Source of the DNA: Escherichia coli 042
GTDB lineage: Bacteria > Pseudomonadota > Gammaproteobacteria > Enterobacterales > Enterobacteriaceae
Length of the DNA stretch: 64,000 nucleotides
Reading direction: 5' to 3' (one strand)
NCBI RefSeq assembly: GCF_000027125.1
Contig: NC_017626.1
Shown here: in pieces, positions 47,011 to 61,979 of the stretch
Layout of the letters: each line of letters begins with the position of its first letter
How positions within the stretch are numbered: position 1 is the stretch's first letter
Made by a program: the position numbers and the translations under genes
Notes under the pieces: model-generated
What the model saw: only the letters and a program-made list of their open reading frames with translations
Told to the model about the DNA's origin: nothing
Databases searched by the model: none

Positions 47011-48547
47011 AATAGTCATTAAACCGAATACCTATTTTGATTCTGTCTCGCTGATGTCTATCTCCACGCGTGCAAATAAACTCGACGGCGTCGAGCAGGC
47101 ATTTGTGGCGATGGCGACCGAAATGAACAAAGGCGTACTGAAGAATTTAGGGCTGCTGACGCCGGAGCTGGAGCAGGCGAAAAACGGCGACCTGATGATT
47201 GTCATTAACGGCAAAGCGGGCGCAGACAACGAGCAGTTGCTGGTGGAGATTGAAGAACTGTTCAACACCAAAGCGCAAAGCGGCTCGCACGAGGCGCGTT
47301 ACGCCACTATTGCCAGCGCCAAAAAGCATATCCCGGAAAGTAACCTGGCGGTGATTTCGGTCAACGGTCTGTTTGCTGCTCGCGAAGCGCGTCAGGCACT
47401 GCAAAACGATCTTAACGTGATGCTGTTTTCCGATAACGTCTCAGTTGAAGATGAACTGGCGCTCAAACAACTGGCCCACGAAAAAGGGCTGCTGATGATG
47501 GGGCCAGACTGCGGCACGGCGATTATCAACGGCGCGGCGCTCTGCTTTGGTAACGCCGTGCGTCGCGGCAACATCGGTATTGTTGGCGCATCTGGCACCG
47601 GCAGCCAGGAGCTGAGCGTCCGTATCCATGAATTTGGCGGCGGCGTTTCGCAACTGATTGGCACCGGCGGGCGCGACCTGAGCGAGAAAATCGGCGGCCT
47701 GATGATGCTCGACGCCATCGGGATGCTGGAAAACGATCCGCAAACTGAAATCATTGTGCTTATCTCCAAACCGCCTGCGCCTGCGGTGGCCCGCAAAGTG
47801 CTGGAACGCGCACGTGCCTGCCGCAAGCCGGTGGTGGTCTGCTTCCTCGGTCGTGGCGAAACGCCAGTGGATGAGCAGGGGCTACAGTTTGCCCGCGGCA
47901 GTAAAGAGGCGGCATTGAAAGCGGTGATGCTCTCCGGCGTGAAACAGGAACATCTCGAGCTGCATACGCTGAACCAGTCGTTGATTGCTGACGTGCGCGC
48001 TCGCCTGCAACCGCAGCAGAAATACATTCGTGGCCTGTTCTGCGGCGGTACGCTGTGTGACGAAACCATGTTCGCGGTGATGGAAAAACATGGCGATGTC
48101 TACAGCAATATTCAGCCCGATCCTGAATTCCGCCTGCAAGATATCAACCGCAGCATCAAACACACCTTCCTCGACTTTGGCGATGACGACTTCACCAACG
48201 GCAAGCCGCATCCAATGATTGACCCGACCAACCGTATCAGCCGCTTGATCGAAGAGGCGCGCGATCCAGAAGTGGCGGTGATCGTGATGGATTTTGTGCT
48301 CGGATTTGGATCGCATGAAGATCCGGTCGGTTCCACCATCGAGGCGATCAAAGAGGCGAAAGCGATCGCCGCTGCCGAAGGACGTGAGTTGATCATTCTC
48401 GCCTATGTGCTGGGTACCGATCTTGATACGCCATCATTAGAACAACAAAGCCAGATGCTGCTTGATGCCGGAGTGATTCTGGCAAGCAGCAGCACCAATA
48501 CCGGATTGCTGGCGCGTGAATTTATCTGCAAAGGGGAGGAAGCCTGA
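47000..48547 (+). CDS. yahF: YahF, FdrA-like protein with succinyl-CoA-synthetase-alpha-like CoA-binding fold
   Basis: 515-aa ORF; Gly-rich nucleotide/CoA-binding segments (GIVGASGTGSQE, GTGGRD). Confidence 0.85.
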   Translation: MSVKIVIKPNTYFDSVSLMSISTRANKLDGVEQAFVAMATEMNKGVLKNLGLLTPELEQAKNGDLMIVINGKAGADNEQLLVEIEELFNTKAQSGSHEARYATIASAKKHIPESNLAVISVNGLFAAREARQALQNDLNVMLFSDNVSVEDELALKQLAHEKGLLMMGPDCGTAIINGAALCFGNAVRRGNIGIVGASGTGSQELSVRIHEFGGGVSQLIGTGGRDLSEKIGGLMMLDAIGMLENDPQTEIIVLISKPPAPAVARKVLERARACRKPVVVCFLGRGETPVDEQGLQFARGSKEAALKAVMLSGVKQEHLELHTLNQSLIADVRARLQPQQKYIRGLFCGGTLCDETMFAVMEKHGDVYSNIQPDPEFRLQDINRSIKHTFLDFGDDDFTNGKPHPMIDPTNRISRLIEEARDPEVAVIVMDFVLGFGSHEDPVGSTIEAIKEAKAIAAAEGRELIILAYVLGTDLDTPSLEQQSQMLLDAGVILASSSTNTGLLAREFICKGEEA

Positions 48548-49965
48548 TGAGCCAGTCACTGTTTAGCCAACCGTTGAACGTTATTAACGTCGGCATCGCC
48601 ATGTTTAGCGATGATCTGAAAAAGCAGCATGTAGAAGTGACCCAACTCGACTGGACGCCGCCGGGGCAGGGCAATATGCAGGTGGTGCAGGCGCTGGACA
48701 ACATTGCCGATTCCCCGCTGGCGGACAAAATCGCCTCCGCGAATCAGCAGGCGCTGGAGCGCATTATTCAGTCACATCCGGTGCTGATTGGTTTTGATCA
48801 GGCGATTAACGTGGTGCCGGGCATGACGCCGAAAACCATTCTTCACGCCGGGCCGCCGATCACCTGGGAAAAAATGTGCGGTGCGATGAAAGGCGCGGTC
48901 ACCGGGGCGCTGGTGTTCGAAGGGCTGGCGAAAGATCTCGACGAGGCGGCTGAACTGGCGGCCTCCGGGGAGATCTCCTTCTCGCCGTGCCACGAACATG
49001 ACTGCGTGGGATCGATGGCTGGTGTTACCTCGGCCTCGATGTTTATGCACATCGTAAAAAACAAAACCTACGGCAACATCGCTTACACCAATATGAGCGA
49101 GCAGATGGCGAAGATTTTGCGTATGGGCGCTAACGACCAGAGCGTGATTGACCGCCTCAACTGGATGCGCGATGTGCAGGGGCCCATGCTGCGCGACGCG
49201 ATGAAAATTATCGGCGAGATCGATCTGCGCTTGATGCTGGCGCAGGCGCTGCATATGGGCGATGAATGCCATAACCGCAATAACGCCGGGACTACGCTGC
49301 TGATTCAGGCGCTGACGCCGGGGATTATTCAGGCGGGCTATTCCGTCGAGCAACAGCGCGAAGTGTTTGAGTTTGTCGCCAGCAGCGACTACTTCTCCGG
49401 CCCGACGTGGATGGCGATGTGTAAAGCGGCGATGGATGCGGCGCACGGCATCGAATACAGCACCGTGGTGACCACGATGGCGCGTAACGGCGTCGAGTTC
49501 GGCCTGCGGGTCAGCGGATTACCGGGGCAGTGGTTTACCGGTCCGGCGCAGCAGGTGATCGGCCCGATGTTTGCCGGTTATAAGCCGGAAGATTCTGGAT
49601 TGGATATTGGCGACAGTGCCATCACCGAAACCTACGGTATTGGCGGATTTGCTATGGCGACCGCGCCTGCAATCGTCGCGCTGGTGGGCGGTACGGTGGA
49701 AGAGGCTATCGATTTCTCCCGTCAGATGCGCGAAATCACTCTCGGCGAAAACCCCAACGTCACCATTCCGCTGCTCGGTTTTATGGGCGTGCCGTCGGCA
49801 ATCGACATCACCCGCGTGGGCAGTAGCGGCATTCTGCCAGTGATCAACACCGCCATCGCTCATAAAGATGCGGGCATCGGCATGATTGGCGCGGGCATTG
49901 TGCATCCACCATTCGCCTGCTTCGAAAAAGCCATTCTTGGCTGGTGCGAACGTTACGGCGTCTGA
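48547..49965 (+). CDS. yahG: YahG (DUF1116), YlbE-like
   Basis: 472-aa ORF; its ATG overlaps the yahF stop (TGATG). Confidence 0.85.
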   Translation: MSQSLFSQPLNVINVGIAMFSDDLKKQHVEVTQLDWTPPGQGNMQVVQALDNIADSPLADKIASANQQALERIIQSHPVLIGFDQAINVVPGMTPKTILHAGPPITWEKMCGAMKGAVTGALVFEGLAKDLDEAAELAASGEISFSPCHEHDCVGSMAGVTSASMFMHIVKNKTYGNIAYTNMSEQMAKILRMGANDQSVIDRLNWMRDVQGPMLRDAMKIIGEIDLRLMLAQALHMGDECHNRNNAGTTLLIQALTPGIIQAGYSVEQQREVFEFVASSDYFSGPTWMAMCKAAMDAAHGIEYSTVVTTMARNGVEFGLRVSGLPGQWFTGPAQQVIGPMFAGYKPEDSGLDIGDSAITETYGIGGFAMATAPAIVALVGGTVEEAIDFSRQMREITLGENPNVTIPLLGFMGVPSAIDITRVGSSGILPVINTAIAHKDAGIGMIGAGIVHPPFACFEKAILGWCERYGV

Positions 49966-49984
49966 CCTGCAAAGTGCGCGTTGT

Positions 49985-50165
49985 CTCTGCCGGATGCGGC
50001 GTGAACGCCTTATCCGGCCTACGAGTGGCGCGAGAATCTGTAGGCCTGATAAGCGTAGCGCATCAGGCATTTGTCACCATTGCCGGATGCGGCGTGAACG
50101 CCTTATCCGGCCTACGAATGGCACGAGAATTCTAGGCCTGATAAGCGTAGCGCATCAGGCAGTCT
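49985..50165. repeat. REP/BIME element pair (two inverted REP units) between yahG and yahI
   Basis: Two copies of GCCGGATGCGGCGTGAACGCCTTATCCGGCCTACG and two of TAGGCCTGATAAGCGTAGCGCATCAGGC in alternating orientation. Confidence 0.7.
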
Positions 50166-50210: not shown

Positions 50211-51161
50211 ATGAAAGAACTTGTGGTCGTTGCCATTGGTGGCAACAGCATTATCAAAGATAACGCCAGCCAGTCGATTGAGCATCAGGCGGAGGCGGTG
50301 AAAGCCGTGGCCGATACGGTGCTGGAAATGCTGGCTTCCGATTACGACATTGTGCTGACCCACGGCAACGGGCCGCAGGTCGGGCTGGATTTACGCCGTG
50401 CGGAGATTGCCCACGAGCGTGAAGGGCTGCCCTTAATGCCGCTGGCGAACTGTGTGGCAGATACGCAAGGCGGCATTGGCTACTTGATCCAGCAGGCGCT
50501 GAACAACCGACTGGCGCGTCACAGCGAGAAAAAAGCCGTCACCGTGGTGACTCAGGTGGAAGTGGATATAAACGATCCGGGTTTTGCTCATCCCACCAAG
50601 CCCATCGGCGCATTCTTCAGTGAAAGCCAGCGTGACGAATTACAAAAGGCAAACCCTGACTGGCGTTTTGTTGAAGATGCCGGACGGGGCTATCGCCGCG
50701 TGGTCGCCTCGCCGGAACCGAAACGTATTGTCGAGGCACCTGCCATTAAGGCGCTGATCCAACAAGGCTTTGTCGTAATTGGTGCGGGCGGCGGTGGAAT
50801 TCCGGTAGTGCGTACTGACGCGGGGGATTACCAAAGCGTGGACGCGGTTATCGACAAAGATCTCTCTACCGCGCTGCTGGCCCGTGAAATTCACGCCGAC
50901 ATTCTGGTGATCACCACCGGCGTCGAAAAAGTCTGTATTCACTTTGGCAAGCCGCAGCAGCAGGCGCTGGATCGGGTGGATATTGCCACCATGACCCGCT
51001 ATATGCAGGAAGGGCATTTCCCGCCTGGCAGCATGTTGCCAAAAATCATCGCCAGCCTGGCGTTCCTGGAACAGGGCGGCAAAGAAGTGATTATCACCAC
51101 GCCGGAATGCCTGCCTGCGGCGCTGCGTGGTGAAACGGGCACCCACATTATTAAAACGTAA
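50211..51161 (+). CDS. yahI: YahI, carbamate kinase-like protein (ArcC family)
   Basis: 316-aa ORF; amino-acid-kinase-fold N-terminus (VVAIGGNSI...THGNGPQVG), as in carbamate kinases. Confidence 0.85.
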   Translation: MKELVVVAIGGNSIIKDNASQSIEHQAEAVKAVADTVLEMLASDYDIVLTHGNGPQVGLDLRRAEIAHEREGLPLMPLANCVADTQGGIGYLIQQALNNRLARHSEKKAVTVVTQVEVDINDPGFAHPTKPIGAFFSESQRDELQKANPDWRFVEDAGRGYRRVVASPEPKRIVEAPAIKALIQQGFVVIGAGGGGIPVVRTDAGDYQSVDAVIDKDLSTALLAREIHADILVITTGVEKVCIHFGKPQQQALDRVDIATMTRYMQEGHFPPGSMLPKIIASLAFLEQGGKEVIITTPECLPAALRGETGTHIIKT

Positions 51162-57464: not shown

Positions 57465-57561
57465 TTCTGAACCCTATGTAAACATCCCCGATGCGTAAGT
57501 TTATCGGTGATCATCTATTGAAATTTATGCCGGAGAAAGCGTTCGCGCTGCATTCGGCAGT

Positions 57562-59148
57562 TCAGCTTTTCAGCCGCCGCCAGAACGTCGTCCGGCTGAT
57601 GCCTAAATAATTCGCCGCTGCTGTTTTATCGCCATTAAATTTCTCCAGTGCCTGTAGTGGTGTCAGCAAGGATGGGGCGGGAATTTTCGCCGACTCGCGC
57701 GCCAGTTCCGGCAGTAGCAGCTGCAAAAATTGCGGCGTTAAATCCGGCGTCGGTTCCACACTTAAAAACAGCGCCAGTCGCTCCATCATATTGCGCAGTT
57801 CACGAATATTGCCCGGCCAGTCGTAGTGCACCAGCACGGTTTCGCTTGCCTGTAATCCCTGGCGTAATGCGGCAGAAAACGGGGCGGAGAGCGCCGCCAG
57901 AGACACTTTCAAAAAGCTTTCCGCCAGCGGCAGAATATCCGTCACCCGCTCGCGCAGTGGTGGCAATTGCAGACGCAAAATACTCAGCCGATAAAACAGA
58001 TCACGGCGAAACTGCCCTTGCCGCATATCTTCTTCCAGATTGCAGTGAGTGGCGCTAATGACTCGCACATCCACCGGAACAGGCTGATGCCCGCCGACGC
58101 GGGTGACCTCTTTTTCTTCCAGCACCCGTAACAGGCGAGTCTGCAAAGGTAGCGGCATTTCGCCAATCTCATCCAGAAACAGCGTACCACCGTGGGCGAT
58201 TTCGAACAGCCCGGCGCGACCTCCGCGTCGCGAGCCGGTAAACGCCCCTTCCTCATAGCCAAACAGCTCTGCCTCCAGCAGCGATTCGGCAATCGCCCCG
58301 CAGTTGACGGCAACAAACGGATGTGACTTTTTGCCCTGTCGCGCATCGTGGCGGGCAAAATATTCCCGATGAATCGCCTGGGCCGCCAGCTCTTTGCCCG
58401 TCCCCGTTTCCCCTTCAATCAACACCGCTGCACTGGAGCGGGCATACAGCAAAATAGTCTGCCGTACCTGTTCCATCTGTGGTGATTGACCGAGCATATC
58501 GCCCAGCACGTAACGAGTACGCTGGGCGTTACGGGTGGCATCGTGAGTGTTATGGCGTAACGACATGCGCGTCATATCCAGCGCATCGCTGAATGCCTGG
58601 CGCACGGTGGCGGCGGAATAGATAAAAATTCCGGTCATTCCGGCTTCTTCTGCCAAATCGGTAATCAGCCCTGCGCCGACCACCGCTTCGGTGCCGTTAG
58701 CTTTCAGCTCGTTAATCTGCCCGCGTGCGTCTTCCTCTGTAATGTAGCTACGTTGGTCGAGGCGCAAATTAAAGGTTTTTTGAAACGCCACCAGCGCTGG
58801 AATGGTTTCCTGATAAGTGACAACGCCGATAGAAGAGGTGAGTTTTCCGGCTTTTGCCAGTGCCTGCAACACATCGTAGCCGCTCGGTTTAATCAAAATA
58901 ACTGGCACTGACAGGCGGCTTTTAAGATATGCGCCGTTAGAGCCAGCAGCGATGATGGCGTCACAGCGTTCGCTTGCCAGTTTCTTGCGGATGTAGGTCA
59001 CCGCTTTTTCAAAGCCAAGCTGGATAGGGGTAATGTTCGCCAGATGATCAAACTCGAGGCTGATATCGCGAAACAGCTCGAACAGGCGCGTCACCGATAC
59101 CGTCCAGATAACCGGTTTGTCGTCATTCAGCCGTGGTGGATGTGCCAT
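57562..59148 (-). CDS. prpR: PrpR, sigma-54-dependent enhancer-binding activator of the propionate operon
   Basis: ORF 57562..59160; start set at [10 protein letters not shown] (ATG 59148); AAA+ sigma-54 interaction domain ([13 protein letters not shown]) and C-terminal HTH. Confidence 0.9.
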
Positions 59149-59209
59149 AGCGCACCGCAAAGTTAAGAAACTGAATATTGGGTTTAGTCTTGTTTCATAA
59201 TTGTTGCAA

Positions 59210-59249
59210 TGAAACGCGGTGAAACATTGCCTGAAACGTTAACTGAAAC
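59210..59249. promoter_or_regulatory. Four direct TGAAAC repeats (candidate PrpR enhancer or other binding sites) in the prpR-prpB intergenic region
   Basis: TGAAAC at 59210, 59220, 59232 and 59244 with 10-12-bp phasing (aatGAAACgcggTGAAACattgccTGAAACgttaacTGAAACgc). Confidence 0.4.
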
Positions 59250-59324
59250 GCATATTTGCGGATTACTTCATGACTTTATCTCTAACAAATTGAAATAAAA
59301 CATTTAATTTTATTCAGGCAATTG

Positions 59325-59340
59325 TGGCACACCCCTTGCT
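59325..59340 (+). promoter_or_regulatory. Sigma-54 (-24/-12) promoter of prpBCDE
   Basis: TGGCAC-ACCCC-TTGCT matches the TGGCAC-N5-TTGCW consensus, 46 bp upstream of the prpB ATG and downstream of the TGAAAC repeats. Confidence 0.75.
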
Positions 59341-59386
59341 TTGTCTTTATTAACGCAAATAACAAGTTGATAACAAAGGATGGGCT

Positions 59387-60277
59387 ATGTCTCTACACTC
59401 TCCAGGTAAAGCGTTTCGCGCTGCACTGACTAAAGAAAATCCATTGCAGATTGTTGGCACCATCAACGCTAACCATGCGCTGTTGGCGCAGCGTGCCGGA
59501 TATCAGGCGATTTATCTTTCCGGCGGTGGCGTGGCGGCAGGTTCGCTGGGGCTGCCCGATCTCGGTATTTCTACCCTTGATGACGTGCTGACCGACATTC
59601 GCCGTATCACCGACGTCTGCTCGCTGCCGCTGCTGGTAGATGCGGATATCGGTTTTGGTTCTTCTGCTTTTAACGTTGCGCGCACCGTGAAATCGATGAT
59701 TAAAGCCGGTGCGGCGGGATTGCATATTGAAGATCAGGTTGGTGCGAAACGCTGCGGCCATCGCCCGAATAAAGCGATCGTCTCGAAAGAGGAGATGGTG
59801 GATCGGATCCGCGCGGCGGTGGATGCGAAAACCGATCCTGATTTTGTGATCATGGCGCGCACCGATGCGCTGGCGGTTGAAGGGCTGGATGCGGCGATCG
59901 AGCGTGCGCGGGCCTATGTTGAAGCGGGTGCCGAGATGTTGTTCCCGGAGGCGATTACCGAACTCGCTATGTACCGCCAGTTTGCCGATGCGGTGCAGGT
60001 GCCAATCCTCGCCAACATTACCGAATTTGGCGCAACACCGCTGTTTACTACCGATGAATTACGCAGTGCCCATGTTGCAATGGCGCTGTACCCGCTTTCA
60101 GCGTTTCGCGCCATGAACCGCGCCGCCGAACATGTCTACAACGTCCTGCGTCAGGAAGGCACGCAGAAAAGCGTCATCGACACCATGCAGACCCGCAACG
60201 AACTGTACGAAAGCATCAACTATTACCAGTACGAAGAGAAGCTCGACGACCTGTTTGCCCGTAGCCAGGCGAAATAA
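59387..60277 (+). CDS. prpB: 2-methylisocitrate lyase
   Basis: 296-aa ORF; isocitrate-lyase/PEP-mutase family signature (KRCGHRP). Confidence 0.9.
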
Positions 60278-60289
60278 AAAACGCCCGTT

Positions 60290-60770
60290 GGTTGTATTCG
60301 ACAACCGATGCCTGATGCGCCGCTGACGCGGCTTATCAGGCCTACGGGATGAACTGAACTGTAGGTCGGATAAGACGCATAGCGTCGCATCCGACAACCG
60401 ATGCCTGATGCGCCGCTGACGCGGCTTATCAGGCCTACGGGGTGAACTGAACTGTAGGTCGGATAAGACGCATAGCGTCGCATCCGACAACCGATGCCTG
60501 ATGCGCCGCTGACGCGGCTTATCAGGCCTACGGGGCGTGCTGAACTGTAGGTCGGATAAGACGTATGGCGTCGCATCCGACAACCGATGCCTGATGCGCC
60601 GCTGACGCGACTTATCAGGCCTACGGGGTGAACTGAACTGTAGGTCGGATAAGACGCATGGCGTCGCATCCGACAACCGATGCCTGATGCGACGCTGACG
60701 CGGCTTATCAGGCCTGCGGGGTGAACTGAACTGTAGGTCGGATAAGACGCATAGCGTCGCATCCGACAAC
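60290..60770. repeat. Tandem REP/BIME array (about five copies of a roughly 90-bp composite unit) between prpB and prpC
   Basis: Near-identical units CGACAACCGATGCCTGATGCGCCGCTGACGCGGCTTATCAGGCCTACGGGGTGAACTGAACTGTAGGTCGGATAAGACGCATAGCGTCGCATC repeated head-to-tail with point variants. Confidence 0.75.
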
Positions 60771-60809
60771 AATCTCGACCCTACAAATGATAACAATGAC
60801 GAGGACAAT

Positions 60810-61979
60810 ATGAGCGACACAACGATCCTGCAAAACAGTACCCATGTCATTAAACCGAAAAAATCTGTGGCACTTTCTGGCGTTCCGGCGGGCAATACGG
60901 CGCTCTGCACCGTGGGTAAAAGTGGCAATGACTTGCATTACCGTGGTTACGATATTATTGATCTGGCGGAACATTGCGAATTTGAAGAAGTGGCGCATCT
61001 GCTGATCCACGGCAAACTGCCGACCCGTGACGAACTCGCCGCTTACAAAACAAAACTGAAAGCCCTGCGCGGTTTACCGGCTAACGTGCGTACCGTGCTG
61101 GAAGCCTTACCGGCGGCGTCGCACCCGATGGATGTCATGCGCACAGGCGTTTCCGCACTCGGTTGCACGCTGCCAGAAAAAGAAGGGCACACTGTCTCTG
61201 GCGCGCGGGATATTGCCGACAAACTGTTGGCGTCGCTTAGCTCGATTCTTCTCTACTGGTATCACTACAGCCACAACGGCGAACGCATCCAGCCAGAAAC
61301 CGATGACGACTCCATCGGCGGTCACTTCCTGCATCTGCTGCATGGCGAAAAGCCGTCGCAAAGCTGGGAAAAGGCGATGCATATTTCGCTGGTGCTGTAC
61401 GCCGAACACGAGTTTAACGCCTCCACCTTTACCAGCCGGGTGATTGCGGGCACCGGCTCTGATATGTATTCCGCGATTATTGGCGCGATTGGCGCACTGC
61501 GCGGGCCGAAACACGGCGGGGCGAATGAAGTGTCGCTGGAGATCCAACAACGCTACGAAACGCCGGACGAAGCCGAAGCCGATATCCGCAAGCGCGTGGA
61601 AAACAGAGAAGTGGTCATTGGTTTTGGTCATCCGGTTTACACCATCGCCGACCCGCGTCATCAGGTGATCAAACGCGTGGCGAAGCAGCTCTCGCAGGAA
61701 GGCGGTTCGCTGAAGATGTACAACATCGCCGATCGCCTGGAAACGGTGATGTGGGAGAGCAAAAAGATGTTCCCCAATCTCGACTGGTTCTCCGCTGTTT
61801 CCTACAACATGATGGGCGTTCCCACCGAGATGTTCACCCCACTGTTTGTTATCGCCCGCGTCACCGGCTGGGCGGCGCACATTATCGAACAACGTCAGGA
61901 CAACAAAATTATCCGTCCTTCCGCCAATTATGTTGGACCGGAAGACCGCCAGTTTGTCGCGCTGGATAAGCGCCAGTAA
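60810..61979 (+). CDS. prpC: 2-methylcitrate synthase
   Basis: 389-aa ORF, citrate-synthase family (GFGHPVYT motif). Confidence 0.9.

Follow-up and report, generated by a model that had tools for sequence, protein, structure and literature searches.

The stretch of DNA analysed here (the window; 64,000 nucleotides from Escherichia coli 042) contains prpB, prpC and prpD on the plus strand between 59387 and 63464, with prpR divergent upstream. All four genes scored far above the NCBIfam equivalog cut-offs. The genes that bear on the junction described below are the following:

57562–59160, minus strand: prpR, which encodes the sigma54-dependent prp activator (NCBIfam NF011953, E = 2.4e-303).
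59387–60277, plus strand: prpB, 2-methylisocitrate lyase, upstream of the array (NCBIfam NF008455/TIGR02317, E = 8e-169).
60810–61979, plus strand: prpC, 2-methylcitrate synthase, downstream of the array (NCBIfam NF009006, E = 4.5e-217).

From the prpB stop (60277) to the prpC start (60810) there is a spacer of 532 bp (60278–60809). A first-pass annotation had described a five-copy REP/BIME tandem array at 60278–60809, coordinates that coincide exactly with the spacer, and the count was borne out: Tandem Repeats Finder returned a single array at 60299–60770 (period 93, 5.1 copies, 96% matches, zero indels, score 874), and a REP pattern search found ten REPs in the spacer, five on the plus strand and five inverted, in strict alternation. 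The near-identity of the tandem units also held, whereas the length of about 480 bp given for the array did not, as the repeat tract measures 472 bp. The five units are in register, and the sequence variants reported between copies amount to 1–5 positions off the consensus in each unit of 93. The features of the spacer are:

60299–60770, plus strand: BIME-2 array, five 93-bp units and 7 nt of a sixth (Tandem Repeats Finder, units in register).
60310–60345, 60403–60438, 60496–60531, 60589–60624 and 60682–60717, plus strand: Z2-type REPs of units 1–5 (pattern search).
60361–60396, 60454–60489, 60547–60582, 60640–60675 and 60733–60768, inverted relative to Z2: Y-type REPs of units 1–5 (the stretches from the pattern search end 1 nt earlier).
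60346–60360, plus strand: tail-to-tail linker GGGRTGAACTGAACT, recurring in every unit and G-rich on the sense strand.
60286–60310, plus strand: small hairpin (GUUGGUUGU/ACAACCGAU), 8 nt past the prpB stop (-11.7 kcal/mol, z = -3.4).
60771–60809, plus strand: unique right flank with CCCTACA and the prpC ribosome-binding site (GAGGA, 60801–60805), read from the sequence.

Each unit is composed of a 36-nt plus-strand REP (GCCTGATGCG..TTATCAGGCCTAC), a 15-nt linker (GGGGTGAACTGAACT), an inverted REP of the second type (GTAGGTCGGATAAG..CATCCGACA) and the 6-nt linker ACCGAT, which separates Y and Z2 head to head. The tail-to-tail linker contains a 5-bp micro-repeat, GAACT, present twice at 60351–60360 and nested in this way within each 93-bp unit. 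On the sense strand, GTAGG stands 5′ of each Y stem.

The RNA structure prediction that the first-pass annotation had proposed gave a strong signal. The whole spacer folded to -272 kcal/mol, compared to -194 ± 6 kcal/mol for shuffled sequences (z = -12.1). In unit 1, the Z2 hairpin had an energy of -23.5 kcal/mol (z = -6.3) and the Y hairpin, which contains a 2 × 2 internal mismatch, one of -19.2 kcal/mol (z of about -6). The right flank (60771–60809) was unpaired in the minimum free energy fold, and the C/G ratio of the array sense strand was 0.91. The small hairpin at 60286–60310, which uses the first head-to-head linker as its 3′ arm, is probably not under selection, because non-compensated changes weaken it in K-12 and in E. 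albertii. A covariation test on 15 distinct units, taken from six E. coli alleles and E. albertii, was uninformative: 23 of the 31 pairs were invariant, the covariation measures did not rise above those of shuffles, and the sole variable Z2 pair (columns 11–22) was mismatched in seven of the 15 units.

The first-pass annotation had also placed the array inside the prpBCDE operon, and this placement stands. Neither a sigma70-like promoter nor an intrinsic terminator was predicted on either strand in a scan of 59100–61100 (the promoter part of which addressed sigma70-type promoters only), so that in this interval the scan supports neither a separate promoter for prpC nor an intrinsic terminator. 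The prpBCDE genes are described as transcribed into one polycistronic mRNA (PMC7360682). Given such a transcript and a prpB–prpC junction with no predicted promoter or terminator, RNA polymerase would have to read through all ten hairpins for prpC, prpD and prpE to be expressed. Elsewhere in the same neighborhood, the convergent yahO–prpR spacer (57465–57561) holds a degenerate single REP-like hairpin (~57530–57560, GCCGGAGAAAGCGTTCGCGCTGCATTCGGCA). It matches the K-12 element named REP24 in the supplement of a 2026 preprint (10.64898/2026.03.23.713779), and the same supplementary table contains rut peaks antisense to yahO beside REP24.

On the strength of its sequence features, the array is a BIME-2 element, namely the five-unit allele of the element REP25 of K-12 MG1655. 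BIME-2 elements are defined as z2 and y REPs in alternating orientation, in tandem copies with a short linker, extragenic and variable in copy number (Gilson, Bachellier, Hofnung; Ton-Hoang et al. 2012, PMC3333891). The array has REPs of both types, with 29/36 and 32/36 identities to the Y and Z2 REPs of REP325, respectively; five of its REPs are on the plus strand and five on the minus strand; its tandem copies are near-identical (5.1 copies, 96%); and no part of it enters the coding sequence of prpB or prpC. The head-to-head linker is short (6 nt), in keeping with S rather than with the long L linker with its IHF site that is found in BIME-1. Also present are the GTAG 5′ of the Y stem and the internal stem mismatch, both of which are needed for RAYT binding (PMC3333891). 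The loss of one GAACT in some alleles (see below) suggests that the tail-to-tail linker has long and short forms. Copy-number polymorphism, the remaining property of the class, was seen as alleles of 0, 1, 3, 4 and 5 units in 113 genomes. The Bachellier PCR survey found BIME-2 loci to be generally present and polymorphic in length, with presence/absence typical of BIME-1; the prpB–prpC locus, in contrast, displays both length polymorphism and presence/absence, with a REP-free allele in ~40% of genomes.

The K-12 element between prpB and prpC is listed as REP25 (349606–349970) in the supplement of the preprint. It agrees with the array of the window in locus, flanks, 93-bp Z2/Y unit, and left and right junction sequences, and differs in having four units in a 439-bp spacer (NC_000913.3, 349573–350011) instead of five in 532 bp. 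The variants within the units also differ, being mostly GTGCACTG and GCGAC in K-12, and GTGAACTG and GCGGC in the window. The K-12 locus tags skip b0332 at the REP array, passing from b0331 (prpB) to b0333 (prpC); judging from the tag numbering alone, b0332 was presumably an ORF once called in the array and then withdrawn.

The best-studied comparison is with REP325, in the K-12 yjdM–yjdN spacer, which is described in the literature as six Y/Z2 units (naRNA1–6). In the sense orientation, we found REP325 to consist of a 100-bp unit in 5.8 copies, in the order Y, linker, Z2, linker. Both arrays are intra-operon BIME-2 elements in which Y and Z2, read along the sense strand, are ordered and oriented alike; their hairpin energies are similar, and both match the Rfam model RF02564. 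The prp Y REP is identical to that of REP325 at 29 of 36 positions and the prp Z2 REP at 32 of 36. Three double substitutions between the two loci preserve stem pairing (U-A to C-G and A-U to G-C in Y; C-G to A-U in Z2). Such compensatory changes were seen only in this comparison. The prp unit, on the other hand, is shorter (93 bp in 5.1 copies, against 100 bp in 5.8), as is its head-to-head linker (6 nt against 12 nt), and the tail-to-tail linkers are unrelated: on the sense strand, REP325 has a C-rich one (9 C and 1 G of 17), whereas that of prp is G-rich (6 G and 2 C of 15) and C-rich only on the antisense strand.

RF02564 (naRNA4) was built from REP325 and has a gathering score of 59.5 bits. 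Four pairs in the array, each consisting of Y, linker and Z2, exceeded it on the plus strand:

60364–60435, plus strand: 67.4 bits.
60457–60528, plus strand: 67.4 bits.
60550–60621, plus strand: 63.5 bits.
60643–60714, plus strand: 61.8 bits.

In practice, RF02564 picks up REP pairs in general and not REP325 specifically, since an unrelated BIME at 50043–50112 outscores the pairs of the array, with 78 bits. This match, on the minus strand, is the best to naRNA4 in the window and belongs to a second BIME (49989–50115) made of a Y REP (plus strand, 49989–50022), a short Z1-like REP (minus strand, 50040–50068) and another Y REP (plus strand, 50082–50115). The second BIME is located between a 472-aa ORF without an NCBIfam match (48547–49965) and a carbamate kinase gene (50211–51161). 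A 183-aa minus-strand ORF (49519–50070) reaches into it and may be another repeat artefact. The Rfam search also gave a strong match to IS009 (RF02111) at 546–746 on the plus strand (190.7 bits, gathering score 117).

Two long open reading frames run through the array on the minus strand:

60223–60762, minus strand: 179-aa ORF with 31-aa repeats, from the ORF list; hypothetical protein WP_001526095.1 in the PGAP annotation, spurious.
60098–60928, minus strand: 276-aa ORF, from the ORF list; the other open minus frame, extending into the ends of both prpB and prpC, spurious.

The first-pass annotation had called the minus-strand ORFs spurious, and we agree. The consensus unit has stops in all three plus frames and is free of stops in two of the three minus frames; because 93 nt equals 31 codons, the open minus frames persist from unit to unit and lengthen with copy number. 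The case for a genuine protein-coding gene would be that the 179-aa frame opens with an ATG and appears as an annotated hypothetical protein in numerous RefSeq genomes (PGAP lists it as WP_001526095.1 in GF60, a strain with 100% identity to the window, and in many further genomes with five units). Set against this, the REP unit dictates its product, a 31-aa repeat, the frame overlaps the 3′ end of prpB, its length tracks the copy number, and it is missing from strains with no unit or one unit. Against Pfam, both minus-strand ORFs gave sub-threshold noise only, with no match above cut-off, and their openness follows from a 93-nt period without stops in two minus frames. That the 179-aa ORF is a real gene is thus next to impossible; the minus-strand ORFs are not genes, and the PGAP annotation is a recurrent error.

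To determine copy number across the species, a 1,200-nt query made up only of the 3′ end of prpB and the 5′ end of prpC was compared with 5,426 complete E. coli genomes, the span of each match giving the length of the spacer. The junction query matched in 5,220 of the 5,426 genomes (5,222 records). Two systematic spread samples, obtained with different flank queries, yielded 113 distinct genomes, among which the alleles were distributed as follows (the genome database is clonally biased, and the shares describe the collection rather than the species):

44-bp spacer, 0 units: 45 genomes (40%).
155–160-bp spacer, 1 unit: 29 genomes (26%).
345–346-bp spacer, 3 units: 12 genomes (11%).
439-bp spacer, 4 units: 25 genomes (22%).
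532-bp spacer, 5 units: 2 genomes (2%).

The expectation in the first-pass annotation that copy number varies between strains was thereby confirmed, and the five-unit allele of the window proved to be both the longest and the rarest in the sample. Among named strains, O157:H7 and Nissle carry one unit, and UTI89 and O111:H8 carry none. Alleles with two units, or with more than five, were not encountered among the 113 genomes, using a method that joins spacers of up to ~1,100 bp. An allele-specific 68-nt query found the REP-free 44-bp spacer in 2,052 of the 5,426 genomes, in agreement with the sample. Because the junction is free of REPs in ~40% of E. coli genomes, the array is dispensable.

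About 200 of the 5,426 genomes had no match at all to the junction query, and the prp operon is thus not universal in E. coli. In SCU-171 (NZ_CP054363.1, 4184591–4184934), only the prpB part of the flank query matched and the annotated neighbor is a cytosine permease, which suggests that a segment running from inside prpB, across prpE, to codB has been deleted. Nine matches to the prp junction were on plasmid-typed records. One of these, NZ_CP053606.1 (NEB Turbo), is a 231,547-bp episome of a cloning strain and carries the four-unit allele of K-12; some laboratory strains thus have two copies of the locus.

Comparison of genomes with closely related flanks revealed how the array changes. Where the flanks share 99.8% identity with the window, genomes mostly have five units, with the exceptions of M7424 (one unit), KK19-02 (three) and O17_K12a (a 527-bp spacer). 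KK19-02 retains units 1–3 exactly. The single unit of M7424 is chimeric, combining the left variant of units 1–3 (GCGCCGC) with the right variant of unit 5 (CCTGC); it arose by an unequal exchange inside the Z2 REP. The 527-bp allele (in unit 5 of O17_K12a) and the 155-bp O157:H7 allele have each lost one GAACT from the linker GAACTGAACT. The laboratory strain OV2 is identical to MG1655 over 3,580 nt of flank, yet has three units, and TUM14664, with 1,050 nt of flanks identical to K-12, lost a different unit than OV2. These alleles point to recurrent contraction, with at least four independent events (5 to 1, 5 to 3, and 4 to 3 twice) and two 5-bp slippage events. In any single record, the 93-bp repeat may have collapsed during assembly; that the pattern is real is nevertheless indicated by the chimeric junction and by its repeated appearance in unrelated assemblies. 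Array length changes by unequal recombination or slippage between the 93-bp units, and the description of the array as recombination-prone in the first-pass annotation was well founded, both in the chimeric unit junctions and in the changes on identical flank haplotypes.

The array is older than E. coli, since E. albertii has ~3.5 Y/Z2 units (405 bp) at the same prpB–prpC junction. Pseudocitrobacter (39–40 bp) and Pluralibacter (59 bp) have plain spacers. Outgroups are few: the PrpC contig scan returned mostly Burkholderiales, and the 80 loci kept include neither Salmonella nor E. fergusonii. The motif CCCTACA is common to the spacers of E. coli, E. albertii, Citrobacter, Pseudocitrobacter and Pluralibacter. 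Directly upstream of it, Citrobacter werkmanii has two REPs of other sequence types and Citrobacter sp. FP75 has one. The spacer seems to have been colonized by REPs more than once, and CCCTAC resembles a REP tail.

The REP-free 44-bp allele is virtually identical in O111:H8, UTI89 and a pig isolate, the flanks of which are 3–4% divergent and do not cluster together. It contains 15 bases that are absent from the filled alleles and lacks 9 bp, TAACAATGA (60789–60797), that are present in the filled E. coli alleles and, as the near-identical TAAAAATGA, in Citrobacter. The 44-bp allele cannot be explained as a single deletion from a filled allele, which fails to account for the 15 unique bases and the extra 9-bp deletion. 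By these sequence comparisons, it is one old allele that now resides on several backgrounds, and it would be either an ancient polymorphism or the result of a single imprecise loss that was then spread by recombination. The TAACAATGA segment sits just upstream of the prpC ribosome-binding site, and its loss puts CCCTACAAATGA beside the Shine-Dalgarno sequence. The 9-bp loss could alter the translation of prpC. The prpB/prpC flanks themselves (59678–61409) are unusually diverse: only 46 of the 5,222 records reach ≥99% identity with the window, the majority lying at 95–97%. The E. albertii flanks are no farther from E. coli strains (16–33 differences in 450 nt and 25–32 in 600 nt) than those strains are from each other. 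This diversity suggests old haplotypes or exchange between lineages.

The first-pass annotation had proposed that such arrays can stabilize upstream mRNA and that copy number may tune the prpB:prpC ratio; what the array does to expression can be considered by analogy with other REP elements, chiefly REP325. We judge it rather probable that it has a dual role, as an exonuclease barrier and as an attenuator, favoring prpB over prpCDE, with an effect that probably grows with the number of units. Once transcribed, the ten stable hairpins would block the 3′ to 5′ exonucleases that stall at structure (RNase II and PNPase), so that the prpB segment would outlast prpCDE, and some RNA polymerases would stop inside the array. 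Both processes would raise prpB mRNA relative to prpCDE, probably more strongly as units are added, and RNase R, which can degrade structured RNA, would clear the resulting intermediates. Intercistronic REPs such as those in malE–malF reportedly shield the upstream segment from 3′ to 5′ decay, in work attributed to Newbury et al. (1987) and Khemici and Carpousis (2004). Stabilizers of the malE–malF type are likewise REP hairpins between co-transcribed genes, with the difference that they consist of one or two REPs whose effects were measured, whereas the prp array has ten hairpins and is known here from sequence.

RNase II and PNPase stall at secondary structure, whereas RNase R does not. RNase R acts on the prp transcript (Simonte et al. 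2017, as reported in PMC7360682), and two further papers state that RNase R degrades prp mRNA and that loss of rnr makes anoxic growth on propionate possible. At the locus itself, Pobeguts et al. 2020 (PMC7360682) noted that the repeat number between prpB and prpC differs between the isolate ZvL2 and K-12 and suggested a post-transcriptional role; an RT-qPCR remark in the same paper puts the induction of prpB in ZvL2 above that of the genes downstream of it. The closest parallel is REP325, as studied in the preprint (10.64898/2026.03.23.713779). There, deletion of REP325 changed the yjdM/yjdN mRNA ratio from 35 to 1, with the upstream gene ~3-fold down and the downstream gene ~10-fold up. REP325 was expressed as a ladder of truncated transcripts, and bicyclomycin lifted read-through from 23% to 39%; the Rho-dependent part was found only with the full 12-hairpin array and not with fragments of 2–4 hairpins. 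REP325 is described as a partly Rho-dependent attenuator that also stabilizes the upstream mRNA. Across the genome, tandem gene pairs separated by REPs had a median log upstream/downstream ratio of 0.96, compared to -0.09 for controls. The same text describes REP effects as context-dependent and reports no general lengthening of half-life by REPs. This context dependence, like the ~40% of strains that do without the array, tempers the case for the dual role.

The Rho component may differ between the two loci. Among the rows listed in the supplement of the preprint, the sole in-vitro rut peak for REP25 is antisense, at the 5′ edge of prpC. (We considered the supplementary table as a list of in-vivo Rho termination regions and rejected this reading, its entries being in-vitro rut peaks.) Because the tail-to-tail linker is G-rich on the sense strand and the rut peak among the rows listed is antisense, the array may have a weaker Rho component on the sense strand than REP325 has. 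It is a matter of speculation that the array helps to stop antisense transcription instead.

A different view would be that the array is a selfish or neutral passenger, REP DNA spread and resized by RAYT/TnpA-REP and homologous recombination, with no selected role in prp and an expression effect that is simply tolerated. We regard this as possible, if on the doubtful side. The array is absent from 40% of genomes, and its copy number varies widely and shifts on identical haplotypes. The plain 39–59-bp spacers of Pseudocitrobacter and Pluralibacter and the other REPs in two Citrobacter suggest a permissive target, and variable BIME-2 copy number, as well as cleavage and strand exchange catalyzed by RAYT, is documented (PMC3333891). 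It is harder to reconcile with a passenger that an array has persisted at this junction since before the split of E. coli and E. albertii, and that REP325, an array of the same build, affects its neighbor genes ~10-fold or more, which makes full neutrality in expression unlikely. The passenger explanation bears on selection and not on the molecular effect, and it is partly compatible with an attenuator and barrier.

Two further roles can be considered. As DNA, the BIME-2 array could be a strong binding and cleavage site for DNA gyrase, handling the supercoiling caused by prp transcription. Gyrase binds REP/BIME DNA at least 10-fold better than random DNA, and in vivo BIME-2 cleavage occurs about once per two repeats, according to work cited in PMC6463007. 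This support is general to REP/BIME elements, however, with none specific to the prp locus; moreover, the prp operon is weakly expressed unless induced and the site is missing in 40% of strains, and we consider a gyrase role very unlikely. Less likely still is that the units give rise to nucleoid-associated RNAs of the naRNA4 kind, which would bind HU and help to condense the chromosome, as proposed for the REP325 RNAs in a 2015 mBio paper. Four units did score above the RF02564 gathering threshold, and naRNA4 itself binds HU with a Kd of ~32 nM. The same model, however, scores the ordinary BIME at 50043–50112 higher (78 bits), and prp is transcribed only on induction. According to the 2026 preprint (10.64898/2026.03.23.713779), which has the same senior author as the mBio paper, deletion or over-expression of REP325 leaves the nucleoid volume unchanged, and REP–REP contacts were not seen. 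The nucleoid role is already largely refuted for REP325, its type locus.

Much of this is already known: REP25 is catalogued, variation in BIME-2 copy number is textbook knowledge, and variation at prpB–prpC was published in 2020 (PMC7360682). The present analysis adds, at a descriptive level, the allele spectrum with its ~40% of REP-free genomes, the recombinant junctions, the E. albertii array and the linker contrast with REP325. Returning to the barrier and attenuator that we favor, the alleles form a natural series, in which the same operon has 0, 1, 3, 4 or 5 identical REP pairs, often within near-identical flanks. This series is suited to a test of REP dosage, and whether dosage sets the upstream:downstream ratio is a question that the 2026 REP325 study left open. 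It is also conceivable, though improbable in our estimate, that the series is a non-neutral rheostat for PrpB relative to PrpC, PrpD and PrpE, with REP-free and multi-unit alleles kept across phylogroups by niche-dependent selection on the use of gut propionate. As a corollary, because the linkers are C-rich on the antisense strand only, the array would mainly block exonucleases on the sense transcript and load Rho on antisense transcripts that start inside prpC. If the rheostat were real, the number of units would set the flux through the pathway and the level of 2-methylcitrate and 2-methylisocitrate, intermediates that are toxic and form the inducer.
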